This document shows, one piece after another, positions 3,987-40,450 of a stretch of 40,450 bases of DNA. Position 1 is the stretch's first letter. Every line of letters begins with the position of its first letter. The notes under the pieces were generated by a model. That model saw only the letters and a program-made list of their open reading frames with translations, made no database searches and had not been told where the DNA came from. The DNA comes from an uncultured Gammaproteobacteria bacterium (GTDB lineage Bacteria; Patescibacteriota; Microgenomatia; Levybacterales; UBA12049): the NCBI GenBank assembly GCA_964540925.1, contig CAZIOR010000003.1, forward strand, positions 9,634-50,083, read 5' to 3'. The position numbers and the translations under genes are program-made.

Positions 3987-4439
3987 ATGACTAAAAGTGA
4001 TCTACAAACAGAGCTAAAAAACTCAATGCTTGCTAAAGACGAAGTAAAAACTTCAGTCTTAAGAATGCTTTTATCTGCTATTAACTACTATGAAATTCAA
4101 AAAGGTGGAGCTGGATATGAAGCGACTGATGAGGATGTTTTAAGTGTAATTGGAGCACAAGCAAAGCAAAGAAGAGATTCTATTGCTGAATACGAAAAAG
4201 CTAATCGACCAGAACTAGTTGAAAAAGAAACTAAAGAATTAGAAATCCTCCAAGTATTTTTACCTGCTCAAATGTCTGAAGAAGAAGTAAAAACACTTGT
4301 ATCTCAAGCAATTTCAGAAACAGGAGCTCAATCAATGGCTGATATGGGAAAAGTTATGTCAGCGCTTATGCCAAAAGTAAAAGGCAAAGCAGATGGTGGA
4401 ATGGTCAGTAATATCGTAAAACAACTACTTACTTCTTAG
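3987..4439 (+). CDS. yqeY: GatB/YqeY domain-containing protein
   Basis: ORF track 3969..4439, trimmed to ATG 3987 (MTKSDLQTELKNSMLAKDEVKTSVLRMLLSAI...). The N-terminal helix pattern, about 150 aa length and ...GKADGGMVSNIVKQLL tail are typical of the YqeY family. Confidence 0.8.
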   Translation: MTKSDLQTELKNSMLAKDEVKTSVLRMLLSAINYYEIQKGGAGYEATDEDVLSVIGAQAKQRRDSIAEYEKANRPELVEKETKELEILQVFLPAQMSEEEVKTLVSQAISETGAQSMADMGKVMSALMPKVKGKADGGMVSNIVKQLLTS

Positions 4440-34387: not shown

Positions 34388-36121
34388 TTAATTTTTGAAT
34401 TTGAAAATAAAATCATTATCTATTTGCTTCACAAATGTTAAATCATTTCTATTTTTTAACTTTGATATTACACCTTCACCGCTTATTTTAAGAGCTTTTT
34501 GCTTAAACAAAACATCATACTCAGTTTTGTTAACAATTAAATAGTTTACCTGCATTTGCTTTATTTTCTCTACAGATTTTGTGTTTGGGAAATTATAAAA
34601 AAGATACAAAGCATCTTCTTGCCACTTAGCTGGAGAGAAACCACTATAACCATTTACCGTTTTTCTAAAAGCAACGGTTGAATAATATTCCCTTTCAAGC
34701 TCCATAACCGAATTTGGGACATTCCAGTTATAAATCGGCATTTGAATATAAACAGAATCTTTTGGAATTGTATTTAACCAAGTATAAACTTTAGGGAAAT
34801 CTTTAGTCTCTTTAAGTGGATAGACTTTCATTGGAAAATTAAACTCTAAAACAATTCCTAAAATTAAAAACAATAACGTTATTTTTTTAGGCTTAATAAA
34901 TTTAGTTAAAAGAATCGCTATGGCAACCGCAAAACAAAACAAAAACATTATTTCCCACCGCTCACTATTCCTAAATCCTTTAAATCCTGGAATTAAATAA
35001 TAAAAAAGAGCATAAGGCAAAACTATTGGAAAGGGGTAATGAATTGTTTCTCTATTAATATGCAGCAATGGACCAAAGCTTAAAAGTAGACTAAAAATTC
35101 CTGTAAAAACTAAGCTATTAAAAAGATATTCTTTAATTCTAAATTTTCTTATAAATTTATAAATTAAAAACACAGACAGCAAAGAAAAGACTAAGCCGAT
35201 GTATCCATACTTTACTTCATCATATCTTGAATATTGTTTTAAATTTGAAATATTTAGCAAAACATTCTGCAATCTTGTTTGTTGATTCGGATAAATTAAA
35301 TCTTCAGGCTGAAGAGCAAAGTGAATTGTATCTCTAATATTTCTAGCAGCAGAATATTCATTGTAAACATCAAAATATGGTTTTATTAAAGGAATTAAAG
35401 TTAAAAAGCAAATAATTACTAACAGGAAATTAGTTTTATTGAAAAGTTTTTTAAATTTCTTTTTATTAGCTAAAAACAAAAAAATTACAAAAACACTATA
35501 AAATAAGAATAAGAAATATCCTGGCAAAAAACTGTTATATATCTGAAGATCAAAAAAAAGTAATGACAAAATTAAATATCTTTGCCTTAATGTTTTAATA
35601 AAAACTAAAAACATTAATATTGATAACGGAATCCATTGGATAGATAAAATTTGAATATGAACTTCTTTGTCTAAAAAGGCCGGAGAAAAAATCAATATTA
35701 ATCCTGAAATAAGTGATGCTAGGAAATTTTTAGTTAAATAAAATGATAATAAAAAAGTAAAAAATCCAACCATAAAAATGGATGATATTAAAGTAAAATT
35801 AACCAAAGCAATTGGGGAATTAAATATTTTTACAAGAGGTAGGGAAATTAACGAAGATGTAATAAAAATATCAGAATATGCGAGCGGATTTAAGTAAGGA
35901 TAATAAAACGTACCAACAAACAAATTCTGGGGATTTGTAAATAAAGAATTTATTACCCATTTAAATACGTATCCATGTAAAAGTTGATCTCCATAACTAG
36001 TTACCCCGTTAGATAAATGAAAAATTAGTGGATACGTTATATATATTGCAGAAAATAAAAAAATAAAAAACGAAAGAAAATAAAGATTAAAAAATCTTTT
36101 AATTAGATTTATTAAATTCAT
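34388..36121 (-). CDS. Polytopic membrane protein (577 aa), possible GT-C-fold glycosyltransferase
   Basis: About 12-14 TM plus a roughly 130-aa C-terminal soluble domain. The first loop has an acidic residue (SYGDQLLHG). Architecture only; no confident family call. It overlaps the serC 3' end by 23 nt. Confidence 0.55.
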   Translation of the reverse strand: MNLINLIKRFFNLYFLSFFIFLFSAIYITYPLIFHLSNGVTSYGDQLLHGYVFKWVINSLFTNPQNLFVGTFYYPYLNPLAYSDIFITSSLISLPLVKIFNSPIALVNFTLISSIFMVGFFTFLLSFYLTKNFLASLISGLILIFSPAFLDKEVHIQILSIQWIPLSILMFLVFIKTLRQRYLILSLLFFDLQIYNSFLPGYFLFLFYSVFVIFLFLANKKKFKKLFNKTNFLLVIICFLTLIPLIKPYFDVYNEYSAARNIRDTIHFALQPEDLIYPNQQTRLQNVLLNISNLKQYSRYDEVKYGYIGLVFSLLSVFLIYKFIRKFRIKEYLFNSLVFTGIFSLLLSFGPLLHINRETIHYPFPIVLPYALFYYLIPGFKGFRNSERWEIMFLFCFAVAIAILLTKFIKPKKITLLFLILGIVLEFNFPMKVYPLKETKDFPKVYTWLNTIPKDSVYIQMPIYNWNVPNSVMELEREYYSTVAFRKTVNGYSGFSPAKWQEDALYLFYNFPNTKSVEKIKQMQVNYLIVNKTEYDVLFKQKALKISGEGVISKLKNRNDLTFVKQIDNDFIFKFKN

Positions 36122-37169
36122 TTATTATTTTTACTAAATTTTTAAAGTCCTGTAAACTATGTGCAGGAAAGTTTCCAATTCTAATTTGTTTTTCTTTATT
36201 TTTTCCATATCCACCACCTAATATAAAACCCCTTGCTTTACAAAAATCTAAAAGTTTTCTTGAACCATTTTTTACGTTAATAACTAAAGTGGTTGTTGAC
36301 CTTAAATTTTTATCTGCAATTGCCAGCGAATAATTAGAATTGTTTTCAAAATAATTATAAACATATTCTGCTTTTTCAACTGTTTCTTTTCTAATCTTTT
36401 CAATTCCCTTTGCATGCATATCTTTAAGTACCTTATTTAACAAATAAAGGCCTAAGACATTTGGCGTCTCCGGAGTTTCTTTTTTGAGCGCATAACTTAA
36501 AAGAGTTGGGAAATTATGATATGTCCCAATACTTTTTTTATTTTTTAATAATAGCTGAGACTTTTTAATTGCCTTTGGACTTAAGATTAAAATTCCTAAC
36601 CCTGCTGGTAAACCAAAACCTTTTTGAACTGATACAAAAACTCCATCTAAATATTTATAATTTAAATTCTCAAAAGGCAAAGAAGAAACACAATCAACGG
36701 CAATTAATAAATTCTTATTTTTTCTTTTTAGTTTATAAATTTCTTCCATTGGAACACTTTCACCAGTACTAGTATCATTTTGAGTTACACATAAAAGCTC
36801 TTGTGTTTGTAGATTTTCTTTTTGTAAAGATTCCACGTATATTTTTTTAGGTTTTTTATTTAATTCCTTTGCGATCTCATAAAACCTCTCACCAAAAGAA
36901 CCAGTAATTAAATGGGCACTTTTTTGCACAACTGTATTTCTAATCATTAATTCCATCGCCTCTGTTCCTGAAGTTATAAAGAAAATTTGATAACCTTCTG
37001 GGATACTTAAAAGTTTTTTTAAAAGACTAGTAGTTTCTGCAAATAAAGTATGAAACTTTTCTCCACGATGATTTAAAGAAGGTATTTGTTCTTTAACAGC
37101 ATCTATCAAGTACCCCTCTACTTTTGCATATAATTTTGATGGACCTACTGTAAAATAAAGATTCTTCAT
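36099..37169 (-). CDS. serC: Phosphoserine aminotransferase (class V aminotransferase)
   Basis: FTVGPSKLYAKV, SLNHRGEKF, LLSIPEGYQIFFITSG and PLP-lysine context SVQKGFGLPAGLGILIL parallel E. coli SerC (SSGPAML, SHRGKEF, AQKNIGPAGLTIVIV). Confidence 0.8.
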   Translation of the reverse strand: MKNLYFTVGPSKLYAKVEGYLIDAVKEQIPSLNHRGEKFHTLFAETTSLLKKLLSIPEGYQIFFITSGTEAMELMIRNTVVQKSAHLITGSFGERFYEIAKELNKKPKKIYVESLQKENLQTQELLCVTQNDTSTGESVPMEEIYKLKRKNKNLLIAVDCVSSLPFENLNYKYLDGVFVSVQKGFGLPAGLGILILSPKAIKKSQLLLKNKKSIGTYHNFPTLLSYALKKETPETPNVLGLYLLNKVLKDMHAKGIEKIRKETVEKAEYVYNYFENNSNYSLAIADKNLRSTTTLVINVKNGSRKLLDFCKARGFILGGGYGKNKEKQIRIGNFPAHSLQDFKNLVKIINEFNKSN

Positions 37170-37172
37170 AAT

Positions 37173-38780
37173 TTACTGCTGAATTATACCACTTAATGAA
37201 CAATAACTTAATATTCTATCTCCCACATAATTTGCGATTCTTAACTGTGCTTCTTCTGTGCTTCCGCCAATATGAGGAGTAAGAATAACATTATTTAAGT
37301 TTTGCAATTCAGATTTAAATTTTTCTCCGTTGTTGGGTTCTTTAATAAATACATCTATTGCCGCCCCTTTTATTTTTCCTTGCTTAATATATTTTGCCAA
37401 AGCAATTGGATCAACAACAAATCCTCTACTTAAATTAAGAAAAATTGAATTATGCTTCATTTGCTTAAATTCTTTATCAGAAATTAATAGTTTGTTTTCC
37501 GCTCTTCCGTCAACATGAACAGTAATGAAATCAGAAATTCTTAACAATTCTTCTAGTGAATTACATTTCTGTGCATTTCCAAAAGACAATTTATCAGCTA
37601 TATCAAAATAATATACATTCATTCCTAAACTTTCAGCTAATATTCCAACACTAGTACCAATATTTCCATATCCGATTATTCCTAAATTTTTGCCTATAAT
37701 TTCATTTGAGTTATTTGCAGACTTGTCCCAAAATCCATCGTGAAGATTATTACTCTTTTGAAAAATTCCTCTACTTAAAATAATAATCTCAGCAATTACT
37801 AATTCGACTACGCTTCTTGAATTACTAAAGGGAGCATTGATTACTTGAATATTTTTCTTTTTACATTCTTCAATCTCTATTTGGTCAGTTCCAATACAAA
37901 AAGCAGCAATGATTTTTAAATTATCTGCACTTAGAATAACTTTTCTTGTTACTTTAGTTTTTGATCTTATCCCTAAAATATCTATATTTTTTATTTTTTT
38001 AATTAATTCTTTTTCTGATAATGAATCTTTAATAAGTTCAACGCTAAAAATTTCTTTATCGAATTTTTCTAAAATACTGATATGAATATTCTCTAGTAGC
38101 AAGACATTAATTTTTTGCAACTTAAAATTAAAGATAAAATCGTTTAATGATTTTGCTATGTAATCCGCTGTACTAATTAGTATTTCTCTATTAATGTTTT
38201 CTGTGAATAAAATAAATTTAGCATTGTTATTTTTTATTTTTATTTCGTAATCTGTATAGCCATCACCAACAACATAAATATCACCTTCTAATTTTAATGA
38301 CTTGACAGTTTTTACTTTTCCCAATGGCTTAGCTAATAAATTATTTTTATCAAAACCTACAACTTTATTTTTTTTATAAATAAAATTATTTCCAAAAACA
38401 TTTTCTTTCAATATTCCAAAATCTTTAACGACAGGATAAATATATTCTTTGAATCCACCTGAGACAATGTAAATATTTTTCCTGTTTTCTAAAATAAATT
38501 TCTTATTTTCTAAAAAAGAATTTGTAATATTTTGTTTTAATAATTTAATCAGCTTATCAATATTCTTCTTATTAATATCCAAAAGCTTTAACCTCATCTC
38601 TAAAGATTTTGTAAAACTGATTCTACCCTCCATTCCTTTTTTGGTGATTTCTTTAATTTTATTTACAATTTCTTTCTTATCCTTATTATTTTCCAAAACA
38701 ATTTCAGCCAACAAATCCATGGCTTCATATTTAATGAAGGTACTATCAAAATCAATAATGAAAAAGTTTGTTTTTGCCAT
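37173..38780 (-). CDS. Fusion protein: phosphoserine phosphatase (HAD, SerB-like) N-terminal domain plus D-3-phosphoglycerate dehydrogenase (SerA-like) lacking the ACT domain
   Basis: Residues 1 to about 215: FIIDFDSTFIKYEAMDLLAEI (DxDST motif I) and VVGDGYTDYEI (motif IV). From about residue 222 to the end it is collinear with my recollection of E. coli SerA (FCIGTDQIE, NAPFSNSRSVVELVIAE, LGIIGYGNIGTSVGILAESLGMNVYYFD, AAIDVF, TPHIGGSTEEAQ). It stops where the SerA ACT domain would begin. Confidence 0.85.
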   Translation of the reverse strand: MAKTNFFIIDFDSTFIKYEAMDLLAEIVLENNKDKKEIVNKIKEITKKGMEGRISFTKSLEMRLKLLDINKKNIDKLIKLLKQNITNSFLENKKFILENRKNIYIVSGGFKEYIYPVVKDFGILKENVFGNNFIYKKNKVVGFDKNNLLAKPLGKVKTVKSLKLEGDIYVVGDGYTDYEIKIKNNNAKFILFTENINREILISTADYIAKSLNDFIFNFKLQKINVLLLENIHISILEKFDKEIFSVELIKDSLSEKELIKKIKNIDILGIRSKTKVTRKVILSADNLKIIAAFCIGTDQIEIEECKKKNIQVINAPFSNSRSVVELVIAEIIILSRGIFQKSNNLHDGFWDKSANNSNEIIGKNLGIIGYGNIGTSVGILAESLGMNVYYFDIADKLSFGNAQKCNSLEELLRISDFITVHVDGRAENKLLISDKEFKQMKHNSIFLNLSRGFVVDPIALAKYIKQGKIKGAAIDVFIKEPNNGEKFKSELQNLNNVILTPHIGGSTEEAQLRIANYVGDRILSYCSLSGIIQQ

Positions 38781-38804
38781 AAAAAAACCTCCCTTTTCGG
38801 GAGG
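38781..38804 (-). terminator. Intrinsic terminator / SD-sequestering hairpin immediately 5' of the serB-serA ATG (attenuator segments 3:4)
   Basis: Minus-strand RNA CCUCCC-GAAAA-GGGAGG-UUUUUUU-AUG. A 6-bp GC-rich stem with a 5-nt loop and a U7 tract. The 3' arm GGGAGG is the only SD for ATG 38780. Confidence 0.65.
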
Positions 38805-38828
38805 ATCTATCTTTTTATTTACAACAAA

Positions 38829-38897
38829 TTACCTCCCGCAGTTATCGCTACTGCAGGATGGTGAAAAATTGTTATTTACATCTACTCGACTATTCAT
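38829..38897 (-). CDS. Candidate leader peptide, 22 aa, Ser/Cys-rich (MNSRVDVNNNFSPSCSSDNCGR)
   Basis: ATG 38897-38895 lies 6 nt downstream of TATAAT; stop TAA at 38831-38829. Codons 12-17 are tca cca tcc tgc agt agc. The uORF overlaps RNA segments 1 and 2 of the alternative-hairpin set. Confidence 0.5.
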   Translation of the reverse strand: MNSRVDVNNNFSPSCSSDNCGR

Positions 38898-38903
38898 AAG
38901 TTA

Positions 38904-38931
38904 ATTATACATTTCTTAAATTTACTGTCAA
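38904..38931 (-). promoter_or_regulatory. Near-consensus sigma70-type promoter between secA and the ser operon
   Basis: Minus strand: TTGACA (38931-38926), 16-nt spacer, TATAAT (38909-38904). It starts 2 nt after the double stop TAGTAG of secA. Confidence 0.6.
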
Positions 38932-38935
38932 TCTA

Positions 38936-40450
38936 CTAATTTGGCCAATGACATTTTTTATATTTCTTTCCGCTTCCACACCAACATGGATCATTTCTTC
39001 CAAGTTTTTTCTTAGCTTTTAATTGTTGGTCTTTTGAAACTTCTTTATTATAATTTTCTCCAGCAGCAACCTCTTTAACATTAGCATTATTTAAAGGATT
39101 TTCAACCAATGGCTCTGTATGAACATGCATTTTATATACCCTATGCACTATCTCATCATCAATAGTACCAATTAATTTCTCAAACATGACAAATGCTTCA
39201 TTTTTGTATTCTACTAATGGATCTTTTTGTCCATAGGCCCTAAGACCTACACCTTGCCTGAAATTCATGATTGCATCTAAATGGTCTGTCCATAAGTTAT
39301 CAATAACTGATAAATTAACATATCTTTCAATTTGCCTCATTAAATCTTTGCCCATTTCTTTTTCTCTTTTTTCATAAAGCTCGTCTGCTAAATTAGTTAG
39401 AAAATTAATTTTTCCCTCATCTCCACTTACTTGCTCAAGCTGCATTGCAATTTGTTTTATTGAATCTTCATCAAAAAGAATAATAGTCGAAAATTCTTGA
39501 GCAATTCTTTCCGATACTGACTTACCCTCATCAAATGAATTAGACTGAATATTAACAATGGCTGCTATTGCATCATGGATTTTTTCTAAGATATCTTTCT
39601 TTAACTGTTCAGATTTTTCATCAATTTCTAAAACGGCTCTTCTACGTTTGTAAATAATTTCTCTCTGTTTATTTAAAACATCATCATATTCAACTTCATG
39701 CTTTCTAGCATCAAAGAAGTGTCCTTCTACTTTTACCTGAGCTTGCTCAATAGCTCTTGAAACAAGTGGATGGGAGAGTGGCACATCTTCTGGCATATTA
39801 AATCTAGTCATTAAACCTGAAATTGTATCCCCACCGAAAAGTCGCATAATTTCGTCATCTAATGCAACAAAGAATTGTGATGTTCCTGGATCGCCTTGCC
39901 TTCCTGACCTTCCTCTTAACTGATTATCTATTCTTCTTGATTCGTGTCTTTCTGTTCCAATAACATAAAGTCCTCCAAGCTTTAATACTTCATCATGATG
40001 TTTTTGCCAAGTTTCTAATTCTTTTCCTTTTTTATCTGTTCCATCTGTATTTCTAGGTGGCTCTCCTCCTAAAATAATATCGACTCCTCTTCCAGCCATA
40101 TTAGTCGCAACAGTTACTGCTCCTTTTTCTCCGGCTTTGGCAATAATCTCTGCCTCTCTTTCATGGTTTTTAGCATTTAATACCTCATGCTTAATTCCTT
40201 TTCTTCTTAGAAGTTCAGAGATAATTTCGTTTTTATCAATAGAGGTGGTTCCAACTAAAACTGGCTGCCCAGTAGCATGTATTTTTTCAATCTGAGCTGC
40301 AATAGCGCTAATTTTAGCTCTATTGGTTTTGTAAATTGCATCAGACAAATCTTCTCTAACCATTGGTCTGTGCGTAGGAATTGTAACAACTTCTAATTTA
40401 TAAATCTTATTAAATTCTTCAGCTTCAGTTACAGCAGTTCCCGTCATACC
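38936..40450 (-). CDS. secA: Preprotein translocase ATPase SecA, C-terminal about 504 aa (5' end beyond the window)
   Basis: Starts mid-motif (G)MTGTAVTEAEEF. Contains TNMAGRGVDIILGG, ERHESRRIDNQLRGRSGRQGDPG and the C-terminal zinc-binding tail GRNDPCWCGSGKKYKKCH. Confidence 0.93.
   Translation of the reverse strand, partial: GMTGTAVTEAEEFNKIYKLEVVTIPTHRPMVREDLSDAIYKTNRAKISAIAAQIEKIHATGQPVLVGTTSIDKNEIISELLRRKGIKHEVLNAKNHEREAEIIAKAGEKGAVTVATNMAGRGVDIILGGEPPRNTDGTDKKGKELETWQKHHDEVLKLGGLYVIGTERHESRRIDNQLRGRSGRQGDPGTSQFFVALDDEIMRLFGGDTISGLMTRFNMPEDVPLSHPLVSRAIEQAQVKVEGHFFDARKHEVEYDDVLNKQREIIYKRRRAVLEIDEKSEQLKKDILEKIHDAIAAIVNIQSNSFDEGKSVSERIAQEFSTIILFDEDSIKQIAMQLEQVSGDEGKINFLTNLADELYEKREKEMGKDLMRQIERYVNLSVIDNLWTDHLDAIMNFRQGVGLRAYGQKDPLVEYKNEAFVMFEKLIGTIDDEIVHRVYKMHVHTEPLVENPLNNANVKEVAAGENYNKEVSKDQQLKAKKKLGRNDPCWCGSGKKYKKCHWPN

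Follow-up and report, generated by a model that had tools for sequence, protein, structure and literature searches.

The 155 nucleotides (nt) between the secA stop (open reading frame end 38936) and the serB-serA start codon (38780) on the minus strand of the stretch analysed here hold a promoter, a short upstream open reading frame (uORF) and a set of mutually exclusive RNA helices. Together these probably act as a transcription attenuator of the ribosome-mediated, leader-peptide kind, one that would also hide the serB-serA ribosome-binding site and that belongs to a family conserved in the Candidate Phyla Radiation (CPR). The stretch, called the window throughout, comprises 40,450 nt of contig CAZIOR010000003.1 (assembly GCA_964540925.1). 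To our knowledge almost nothing is known of gene regulation in CPR/Patescibacteria, bacteria that cannot be grown alone. An earlier note, made from the letters of the window alone, had described a trp-attenuator-like leader with serine codons at this place; its anatomy and topology have held up well, and its picture of what the leader senses has had to be widened considerably.

Transcription would be driven by a TTGACA box (38926..38931) and, 16 nt further on, a TATAAT box (38904..38909), together a 12/12 match and the sole promoter of that quality across 36000-40450. The -10 box ends 6 nt ahead of the uORF ATG at 38897, and the window transcript is predicted to be leaderless or nearly so. The uORF (38829..38897) reads as 22 codons and a TAA stop, MNSRVDVNNNFSPSCSSDNCGR*, has orthologues in relatives and is presumably translated. 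It opens with a 13-codon module, M-N-x-R-V-D-[VFIP]-x-N-N-[FY]-S-P (38859..38897), which recurs in 88 distinct leaders and is probably the stalling or sensor part of the nascent peptide, and continues into codons 14-17, UCC UGC AGU AGC (Ser Cys Ser Ser; 38847..38858), putative regulatory codons within segment 1 of the RNA switch. Segment 1, the anti-antiterminator strand, spans uORF nt 36-48 and codons 12-16 (38850..38862, with a CCUGCAG core at 38857-38851). Segment 2 spans nt 56-67, codons 19-22 and the first base of the stop (38831..38842, with CUGCGGGAGG at 38841-38832), and can pair with segment 1 or segment 3. Segment 3, CCUCCCG (38798..38804), is both the terminator 5' arm and the partner of segment 2 in the antiterminator, while segment 4, GGGAGG (38788..38793), is the terminator 3' arm and the sole Shine-Dalgarno (SD)-like sequence ahead of serB-serA; a U7 tract (38781..38787) leads directly into the ATG. 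From spacer and promoter through the start codon and length of the uORF to segments 1-4 and the U7 tract, each feature lies where the earlier note had placed it. An SD-like motif precedes just 3 of the 27 long open reading frames (ORFs) in the window, and a strong GGGAGG ahead of serB-serA is atypical for this genome.

The predicted folding energy of the 126-nt leader is -37.2 kcal/mol; 200 dinucleotide shuffles gave -22.7 +/- 3.3 kcal/mol, and none did as well (z = -4.4; 0/200). In the free RNA, helix 1:2 at -17.6 kcal/mol forms beside the 3:4 terminator at about -12 kcal/mol. Helix 1:2 had been recognised in the earlier note, which credited it with 7 bp; folding extends it to 12 bp (9 + 3 with one bulged A, nt 36-48 with nt 56-67), and its duplex, at z = -4.1 against shuffles, is the strongest in the leader family. 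The terminator hairpin, CCUCCC-GAAAA-GGGAGG followed by U7 (38804-38781), adjoins the serB-serA ATG, and in the predicted fold it buries the only SD. The ribosome was imitated by masking stretches of RNA before folding, with the edge of its footprint assumed to lie ~15 nt downstream of where the P-site codon begins. With nt 1-52 masked, equivalent to codon 14 in the A site, the predicted structure is the 2:3 duplex CGGGAGG/CCUCCCG extended by a weak helper helix seen only under that mask (5' strand AUUUGUU, 38823..38829; 3' strand GAUAGAU, 38805..38811), at -15.8 kcal/mol, and 2:3 is still part of the minimum-energy fold once the RNA is extended through segment 4 and the U tract. Advancing the ribosome to codon 16 in the A site still permits 2:3, and a further step to codon 17 weakens it to -9.6 kcal/mol; when the ribosome is placed at the uORF stop codon the terminator 3:4 alone forms. 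In silico, the window leader shows the three states of a trpL-type attenuator, and the topology that the earlier note had read by eye, with 2:3 as antiterminator under an early-held ribosome, is what the masked folds predict.

In the attenuation model, transcription would start at or just ahead of the uORF AUG. Were a ribosome to run unhindered to the stop codon inside segment 2, or were there no ribosome at all, segment 2 would be covered or held by segment 1; with segment 2 unavailable, CCUCCC/GGGAGG-U7 would form and transcription would end 1 nt before the serB-serA ATG, and in any full-length RNA that adopted the terminator state GGGAGG would be buried. A ribosome held with codons 13-16 in its decoding centre would cover segment 1 and not segment 2, which would then pair with segment 3, so that no terminator would form and GGGAGG would be free. 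The place of the stall would be set in all members by the conserved 13-residue nascent peptide, as its conservation and its fixed spacing to segment 2 suggest, and the same peptide probably sets the strength of the stall. Ser14, Cys15, Ser16 and Ser17 in this copy, like the Ser/Cys runs in most serine operons, would add a dependence on charged tRNA-Ser (and tRNA-Cys). Both the stalling at codons 13-17 and its trigger are steps that we infer.

At the level of sequence, conservation across many genomes is the strongest argument against chance. Six leaders (loci L005, L007, L001, L008, L163 and L168) were retrieved via the SerB-SerA protein, not via the leader. L005 and L007, with a SerB-SerA 76% identical to that of the window, share its secA-leader-serBA-serC synteny. 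The enzymes of the other four are just 52-57% identical, yet their leaders are orthologous: the uORFs read MNPRVDFYNNYSPCSSSSPISGRLMNSG in L001 (Candidatus Roizmanbacteria, SerB-SerA 52% identical), MNPRVDVNNNFSPSNSSLSMSAGRIVDS in L008 (Candidatus Levybacteria), MNTRVDVNNNFSPSSSKASFGRFFVL in L163 and MNSRVMITNNFSPSNRCKKASGRFFAQ in L168. In L001, L008 and L163 the whole leader is kept where the upstream gene is not secA, which tells against the simplest reading of the spacer, namely that the hairpin is the secA terminator and the uORF an accident. That reading could appeal to the position of the hairpin downstream of secA and to a weak Phe_leader match that rests mainly on the terminator; the hairpin, however, stands downstream of the promoter and not upstream, and conservation already refutes the idea, to which we attach next to no credence.

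The leader has a definite distribution. It is absent from two other CPR SerB-SerA loci (L165:1200-1510 and L166:1200-1510, from Microgenomates 'Fur009' and a GC-richer Patescibacteria metagenome-assembled genome (MAG)), and is thus lineage-restricted within CPR; nor is it found at the Cyclobacteriaceae locus L002. A pattern scan with the back-translated first 13 codons against one genome per species (185,579 species) returned 42 loci, all CPR-labelled or close kin of CPR-labelled ones. Titles of 25 of them name Roizman-, Levy-, Woese- or Gottesmanbacteria, Microgenomates, Patescibacteria or, once each, Saccharibacteria and Parcubacteria. The other 17 are third-party annotation MAGs titled 'uncultured Gammaproteobacteria/Pseudomonadales', labels that we take to be wrong because the leaders and enzymes are near-identical to those of CPR; the taxonomy of some records is doubtful. 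The suspect records are L012-L014, L016, L018-L021, L024, L026, L027, L030, L032, L034, L044, L046 and L052; the leader and SerB-SerA gene of L013, for instance, are near-identical to those of L011, and L027 is the same contig as L005, the kin being Roizman- and Levybacteria. Copies added by a metagenome scan bring the pattern-matching leaders to 88 distinct sequences, or 90 members with L163 and L168. When the ATG-AAY requirement was dropped, all extra non-CPR matches fell inside large ORFs and had no start codon, and two new true members emerged (MSSRVD... and MHSRVD...), with the ATG again exactly 9 nt before the Arg codon. Searching every retrieved locus with nhmmer for additional, divergent copies gave only known chance matches and L168. 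L087 ('Melainabacteria') was set aside as a chance match with no leader features. On the sequences scanned, the family is confined to CPR/Patescibacteria, mostly of Microgenomates type. The window holds a single copy, with no second one even when 3 mismatches are allowed.

The first 13 codons, which the earlier note had passed over as filler, are the most conserved part of the leader, and it is as a peptide that they appear to be conserved. Across the 88 leaders the R4 codon is AGA in 42, CGA in 32, CGT in 8, CGC in 5 and AGG in one, so that Arg is drawn from both the CGN and AGR families; V5 uses GTT, GTA, GTC and GTG, D6 uses GAT (50) or GAC (38), N9 and N10 use AAT or AAC, and S12 and P13 use four codons each. 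Third positions vary at every conserved codon, and 10 of the 13 positions keep their residue in all or nearly all leaders while synonymous codons change freely, as expected of a peptide selected independently of codon identity. The uORF ATG stands at a fixed distance in all 90 members, with no N-terminal extensions. This synonymous variation around a fixed start argues for a translated peptide and not an RNA motif. Initiation itself is more variable. A TTGACA/TATAAT-like promoter lies at the matching place in at least 43 of 86 members, its -10 box ending 6-9 nt before the ATG in 40 of those 43, and about ten leaders carry an SD-like motif at the uORF in place of the leaderless-type promoter. 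The leaderless uORF of the earlier note, a reading from promoter spacing, therefore holds for about half of the family and not for the SD-led copies; since both kinds exist, the conserved feature is the translation start and the peptide sequence.

The same observations bear on whether the element is a translation-independent riboswitch or protein-binding RNA in which the AUG is incidental. The regulated genes resemble the regulons of tetrahydrofolate (THF), ZTP and glycine riboswitches, and a conserved block at the transcript 5' end is reminiscent of an aptamer. Against this stand the strict three-base periodicity with silent CGN/AGR switches, the ATG at a fixed distance even in matches found without requiring it, the occurrence of both SD-led and leaderless versions and the lack of any stable conserved helix predicted within nt 1-35. 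Furthermore, Rfam assigned no family at gathering score anywhere in the window, not even a tRNA, nor in 16 related loci. We regard an aptamer of this sort as very improbable. The best sub-threshold matches in the leader region, Phe_leader (RF01859; 28.9 bits against a threshold of 55) and His_leader (RF00514; 17.5 against 49), were rejected as identities, the aligned part being essentially the terminator. T-box models gave no match in the leader region even at E <= 10, and THF, ZTP and glycine riboswitch models none at gathering score in the window or the 16 loci. The earlier note had proposed the Rfam check and knew of no described leader-peptide attenuator for serine biosynthesis; no known family explains the leader, and full-text literature searches turned up no description of this leader family, of serine leader peptides or of CPR leader peptides. 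The family is apparently undescribed, as is, as far as those searches reach, any leader-peptide attenuator for serine biosynthesis.

If the peptide is the constant part, the genes behind it indicate what it serves. Serine-synthesis genes follow 33 leaders (SerB-SerA with or without an ACT domain, SerB-like HAD or HAD-ACT proteins, then usually SerC and once SerS). A further 26 lead into Vut_1/TIGR00697 transporter genes, after which comes FolC (scoring over the NCBIfam cut-off), serine hydroxymethyltransferase (SHMT), a dihydrofolate reductase (DHFR)/RibD_C-like protein or a CofE-like gamma-glutamyl ligase. Elsewhere the leader stands directly before SHMT (glyA), before FolC and then SHMT, before fusions resembling methylenetetrahydrofolate reductase, before a ThyA-like protein with a pterin-binding domain followed by adenylosuccinate lyase, or before a 'glycine transporter' family protein, a PspA-like histidine phosphatase, FGase-like proteins and one rimP-like/nusA operon. 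Judged by these neighbours, the regulon is serine/glycine/folate one-carbon metabolism and not serine alone. Two copies, at different operons, occur in each of two genomes: MFNJ01 (L008/L039 and L025) and PRDT01 (L037 and L051). Vut_1/TIGR00697 genes annotated 'queuosine precursor transporter' lie behind the leader at L024:2769-4768, L042:286-2346, L036:3724-4922, L048:2902-4088 and L035:5906-7356, and their substrate in these CPR genomes may be a folate or a pterin rather than preQ0/preQ1. Sensing of queuosine-modified tRNA was considered as the signal, given a motif rich in Asn/Asp/Tyr NAY codons and the membership of Vut_1 in a preQ transporter family, and was rejected: NAU and NAC are interchangeable, and the rest of the regulon is folate/serine.

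The presumed regulatory read-out downstream of the peptide varies. In L024 and L046 the sequence right after the stop of a 14-codon uORF (UUUCUCCC) pairs with a downstream AGGAGG, and in the modelled structure the SD would stay paired unless a ribosome dwelt on codons 13-14 or on the stop codon. In L041 the SD is sequestered in a 3:4-like hairpin; this locus (L041:184-2098; leader MNSRVDVYNNFSPQKSLS*) places the SD-sequestering version ahead of a 164-aa ORF and then nusA, and is the one member outside serine/folate metabolism. Should infB follow nusA there, as in other bacteria, the leader would be linked to the factor that reads fMet-tRNA. Many Vut_1-class leaders (L014, L036, L105, L106, L134, L140, L149 and others) have neither terminator nor SD hairpin, and instead a spacer of 40-60 nt that is rich in C, poor in G and predicted to be largely unstructured; by analogy with tnaC-tnaA, and as speculation, this might be a Rho-dependent version. 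That a single peptide is coupled to several expression platforms argues that the peptide is the shared sensing or stalling module. At L012, ~110 nt separate the leader terminator from the next ORF (locus minus strand, downstream of 4204-4241), and two further well-paired hairpins, GUUGGAU...AUCCAAC and CCCCGCUAGAU...AUCUAGCUGGGG, precede the next SD; they may be a second regulatory element in tandem.

Where a terminator is present, the switch itself is conserved. A GC-rich terminator hairpin followed by a T run occurs in 57 of the 88 leaders, most with CCUCCC/GGGAGG arms and some with variants (CCCCGC/GCGGGG, CCCGCC/GGCGGG, CCCCGAU/AUCGGGG and CCGCCU/AGGCGG among others). All 33 leaders that were folded with nt 1-52 masked pair their terminator 5' arm with a segment upstream, and 49 of 57 have an own 2:3 duplex better than shuffles. 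Pair counting on a MAFFT alignment of the 57 leaders was dropped, segment 2 being offset by a few bases between rows, and a swap test was used instead. In ten variant-arm leaders the terminator arm paired with its own segment 2 at -11.7 to -16.7 kcal/mol, and at -7.7 to -11.3 kcal/mol when segments were swapped with canonical leaders. This difference indicates, without recourse to an alignment, that 2:3 covaries. The comparison with relatives that the earlier note had called for thus found uORF, terminator and antiterminator conserved, with compensatory change in the antiterminator. Geometry points the same way as the peptide. Counted from the ATG, segment 2 starts at a median of nt 61 (interquartile range 59-62, range 55-66), while the uORF stop ranges over nt 52-97 and segment 3 over nt 83-122; a constant segment 2 start despite a variable stop implies that the switch is placed relative to the peptide, ~22 nt after the Pro13 codon, and not to the stop. 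A scheme in which only initiation frequency matters (no ribosome = ON) was discarded, given that in the window helix 1:2 (-17.4 kcal/mol) outcompetes 2:3 (-14.7 kcal/mol) and the free RNA terminates; it fits only some relatives.

Serine codons nevertheless have a part in the story. Tail positions 14-19 are 51% Ser (94/186) and 6% Cys upstream of serine genes, against 8% Ser upstream of Vut_1 genes (Ser in the serine class versus all non-serine leaders, Fisher p = 1.5e-10), and with near-duplicate tails collapsed the enrichment persists (Ser 44% versus 18%, p = 1.3e-5; Cys 6/98 versus 1/150). Tail Ser codons divide into 77 UCN and 25 AGY, and the use of both families argues for selection on the amino acid. 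In the window the nine tail codons include 3 Ser and 2 Cys, where Ser and Cys make up 6.4% and 0.4% of codons in the long ORFs. A cluster of Ser codons such as attenuators carry is therefore present in the window and in the serine class, and absent from the non-serine members. A purely classical serine attenuator, in which only the Ser/Cys codons matter and the N-terminus is a passenger of leaderless initiation or recent descent, would draw on exactly these facts: every trpL element is there in the window with Ser/Cys codons in segment 1, the enrichment is specific to the serine class, and UCN dominates the tails, UCN being the starvation-sensitive Ser codons of B. subtilis according to a passage in PMC3862929. 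The same N-terminus, however, also opens uORFs that lack a Ser run and stand before folate and one-carbon genes, its conservation far exceeds that of the 52-57% identical enzymes downstream, and amino-acid-specific conservation at 10/13 positions goes beyond the need of initiation efficiency. Starvation at Ser codons thus cannot be the family's whole mechanism, and we consider the purely classical account improbable. What remains of the Ser-codon control proposed in the earlier note is its specific association with serine operons.

The regulated genes of the window make a related point. The first (37173..38780, minus strand) encodes a SerB-SerA fusion of phosphoserine phosphatase and 3-phosphoglycerate dehydrogenase, identified with Pfam and NCBIfam, and the second (36099..37169, minus strand; Pfam Aminotran_5) a class-V aminotransferase resembling the phosphoserine aminotransferase SerC, which begins 4 nt downstream; the same gene order recurs in L005, L007, L001 and others. 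The SerB-SerA protein, of 535 aa, has a SerB-like N-terminus, HAD and 2-Hacid_dh domains and a match to NCBIfam PRK11790 phosphoglycerate dehydrogenase at 437.8 bits (cut-off 404). It has no ACT domain by Pfam, as the earlier note had seen, and from this the note had argued that the leader fills a regulatory gap. The leader, however, is found ahead of 627-648-aa SerB-SerA proteins as often as ahead of ACT-less ones, and an ACT domain is on record for those of L163 and L043 (= P0005), so that the leader is not a specific compensation for a missing ACT domain.

Beyond the serine class the trigger must lie elsewhere, since with 8% Ser in the Vut_1 tails hunger for serine cannot be the common one. 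The genes downstream suggest one-carbon status as the signal. A trigger acting through the peptide could be an arrest that depends on a small molecule, the formylation state of Met1 or slowness inherent in the S-P-X step. One could go further and make an effector-dependent arrest peptide of the TnaC/SpeFL kind the primary sensor: a 13-residue chain, wholly within the exit tunnel, would stall the ribosome at Pro13/codon 14 in response to a small molecule or to some translation-linked cue to one-carbon status, for instance a folate or serine/glycine-related metabolite, ZMP or the Met1 formylation state, with the Ser codons secondary or structural. Much about the family suits such a sensor. The peptide is invariant across several candidate phyla and between paralogous leaders of one genome (L008/L039 with L025; L037 with L051), its start codon is always exactly 9 nt before R4 with no N-terminal extensions, and, like a riboswitch aptamer, it is combined with several platforms (terminator, SD sequestration, unstructured C-rich spacer). 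The genes behind it serve serine, glycine, folate and one-carbon metabolism rather than one amino acid, and Vut_1-class uORFs, with their 8% Ser, often stop 1-4 codons past Pro13 (for example MNSRVDFYNNYSPF*). Yet no effector can be named, and a biosynthetic 'stall = ON' logic needs a deficiency signal or an arrest-relieving effector, where TnaC and SpeFL are ligand-induced. The class-specific Ser/Cys enrichment is left unexplained, and the peptide has no known likeness to established arrest motifs (SecM, MifM, TnaC, SpeFL, the Erm leaders, RAPP). As the primary mechanism, effector-dependent arrest seems to us unlikely.

A bolder proposal combines these elements, and we put it forward tentatively, as possible though doubtful. 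The 13-residue (f)M-N-x-R-V-D-x-x-N-N-[F/Y]-S-P would be a nascent-chain sensor of one-carbon status, acting through an exit-tunnel effector or through Met1 formylation, and served by interchangeable RNA read-outs (terminator, SD masking, possibly Rho). Formylation of methionine depends on 10-formyl-THF. Were the proposal true, the module would be a CPR 'peptide aptamer', the protein-synthesis-based counterpart of THF and ZTP riboswitches, running a serine/glycine/folate regulon.

Several observations weigh against the attenuator reading as a description of the whole family, and some touch its serine component. Only 25 of 57 leaders have a significant helix 1:2, so the four-segment design of the window is not universal, and the fold analyses at family level rest on thermodynamic prediction with an assumed ribosome footprint edge. 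UCC supplies 42 of the 102 tail Ser codons (41%) against 6% of Ser codons in the window genes, and UCC suits pairing with GGGAGG; part of the Ser enrichment could be an RNA pairing constraint. The tail of L148, a SerB-SerA leader, is HTS*, with a single Ser. The pattern scans fixed codon positions 1 and 2, which makes amino-acid invariance partly a matter of construction and biases the sample towards the consensus, and the protein-based sample is small (6 leaders) and includes one D6-to-M variant. The attenuator with a conserved peptide remains, in our judgement, the likely reading of the window element.

One neighbour of the operon deserves mention. The last 23 nt of the serC-like gene are shared with a 577-aa ORF (34388-36121, minus strand) that may lie on one transcript with the serine genes. 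The position of this ORF is kept in the two closest relatives (L005:5660-7393 and L007:5660-7393), and it has no Pfam match in the window copy and a weak DUF6311 match in the relatives' records. The GC content of the window is 31.8%.

Among known systems, the window leader is closest in layout to trpL, hisL, pheL, thrL, leuL and ilvL of Proteobacteria, with which it shares a short uORF, pathway codons in segment 1, a stop at segment 2, mutually exclusive helices and a terminator before the first gene. It differs from these classical attenuators in its amino acid, serine, in its predicted leaderless transcript and in a terminator 3' arm that doubles as the SD, while the family differs in an N-terminus of 13 residues that is invariant across candidate phyla and common to a one-carbon regulon. 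Passages in 10.1101/834739 describe leaderless polycysteine small ORFs of mycobacteria as cysteine-responsive attenuators. The resemblance lies in a leaderless uORF at the operon 5' end carrying codons of the pathway amino acid, a leaderless start being in our case a prediction. The phylum is different, however, and here there are two non-adjacent Cys codons and no Cys run, a serB-serA/serC operon and a clear terminator/antiterminator. We know of no conserved, non-regulatory peptide part in the mycobacterial small ORFs.

With arrest peptides the kinship is one of principle. Passages in PMC8429421 describe TnaC as an arrest peptide that senses L-Trp. As there, selection appears to act on the sequence of the leader peptide and not on codons alone, and by analogy a stalled ribosome near the end of the uORF would decide the fate of the transcript; some family members have only a C-rich spacer, as in Rho-dependent tnaC. 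SpeFL is likewise an arrest peptide, sensing L-ornithine. Compared with TnaC and SpeFL, the CPR peptide is much shorter (13 residues up to the presumed stall, counted from Met1), precedes biosynthetic and uptake genes rather than catabolic ones, and is mostly coupled to intrinsic terminators. The leaders of secM-secA, mifM-yidC2 and ermCL-ermC offer a parallel for L041 and for the L024/L046 type, where the SD is hidden in a hairpin and a ribosome stalled at the uORF end could reach the anti-SD; the window terminator, too, buries GGGAGG in the manner of SD-unmasking leaders. Unlike in those arrest leaders, a pulling force or an antibiotic is implausible as the signal here, and the regulon is metabolic.

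Finally, other phyla control similar genes by other means. Passages in PMC8002221 describe T-box control of serine biosynthesis outside CPR. The CPR leader shares with T-boxes and with the THF, ZTP and glycine riboswitches similar regulated genes and a terminator/antiterminator read-out, but at 118 nt it is too short for a T-box, and it differs from all of these riboswitches in having no Rfam match and a coding-type conservation. In other phyla these four kinds of element control serA, serS, glyA and folate genes. One peptide module found across several candidate phyla, ahead of about a dozen kinds of serine, glycine and folate genes, constitutes a testable CPR regulon, and it hints that a subgroup of TIGR00697/Vut_1 transporters carries a folate-type compound. 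It is a compact candidate for a regulatory nascent peptide, of 13-14 residues, in which classical attenuation and peptide-specific stalling may be joined in one leader. Set beside the systems above, the leader is best described as a probable case of ribosome-mediated attenuation, with a real possibility that its peptide represents a new type of nascent-chain sensor.

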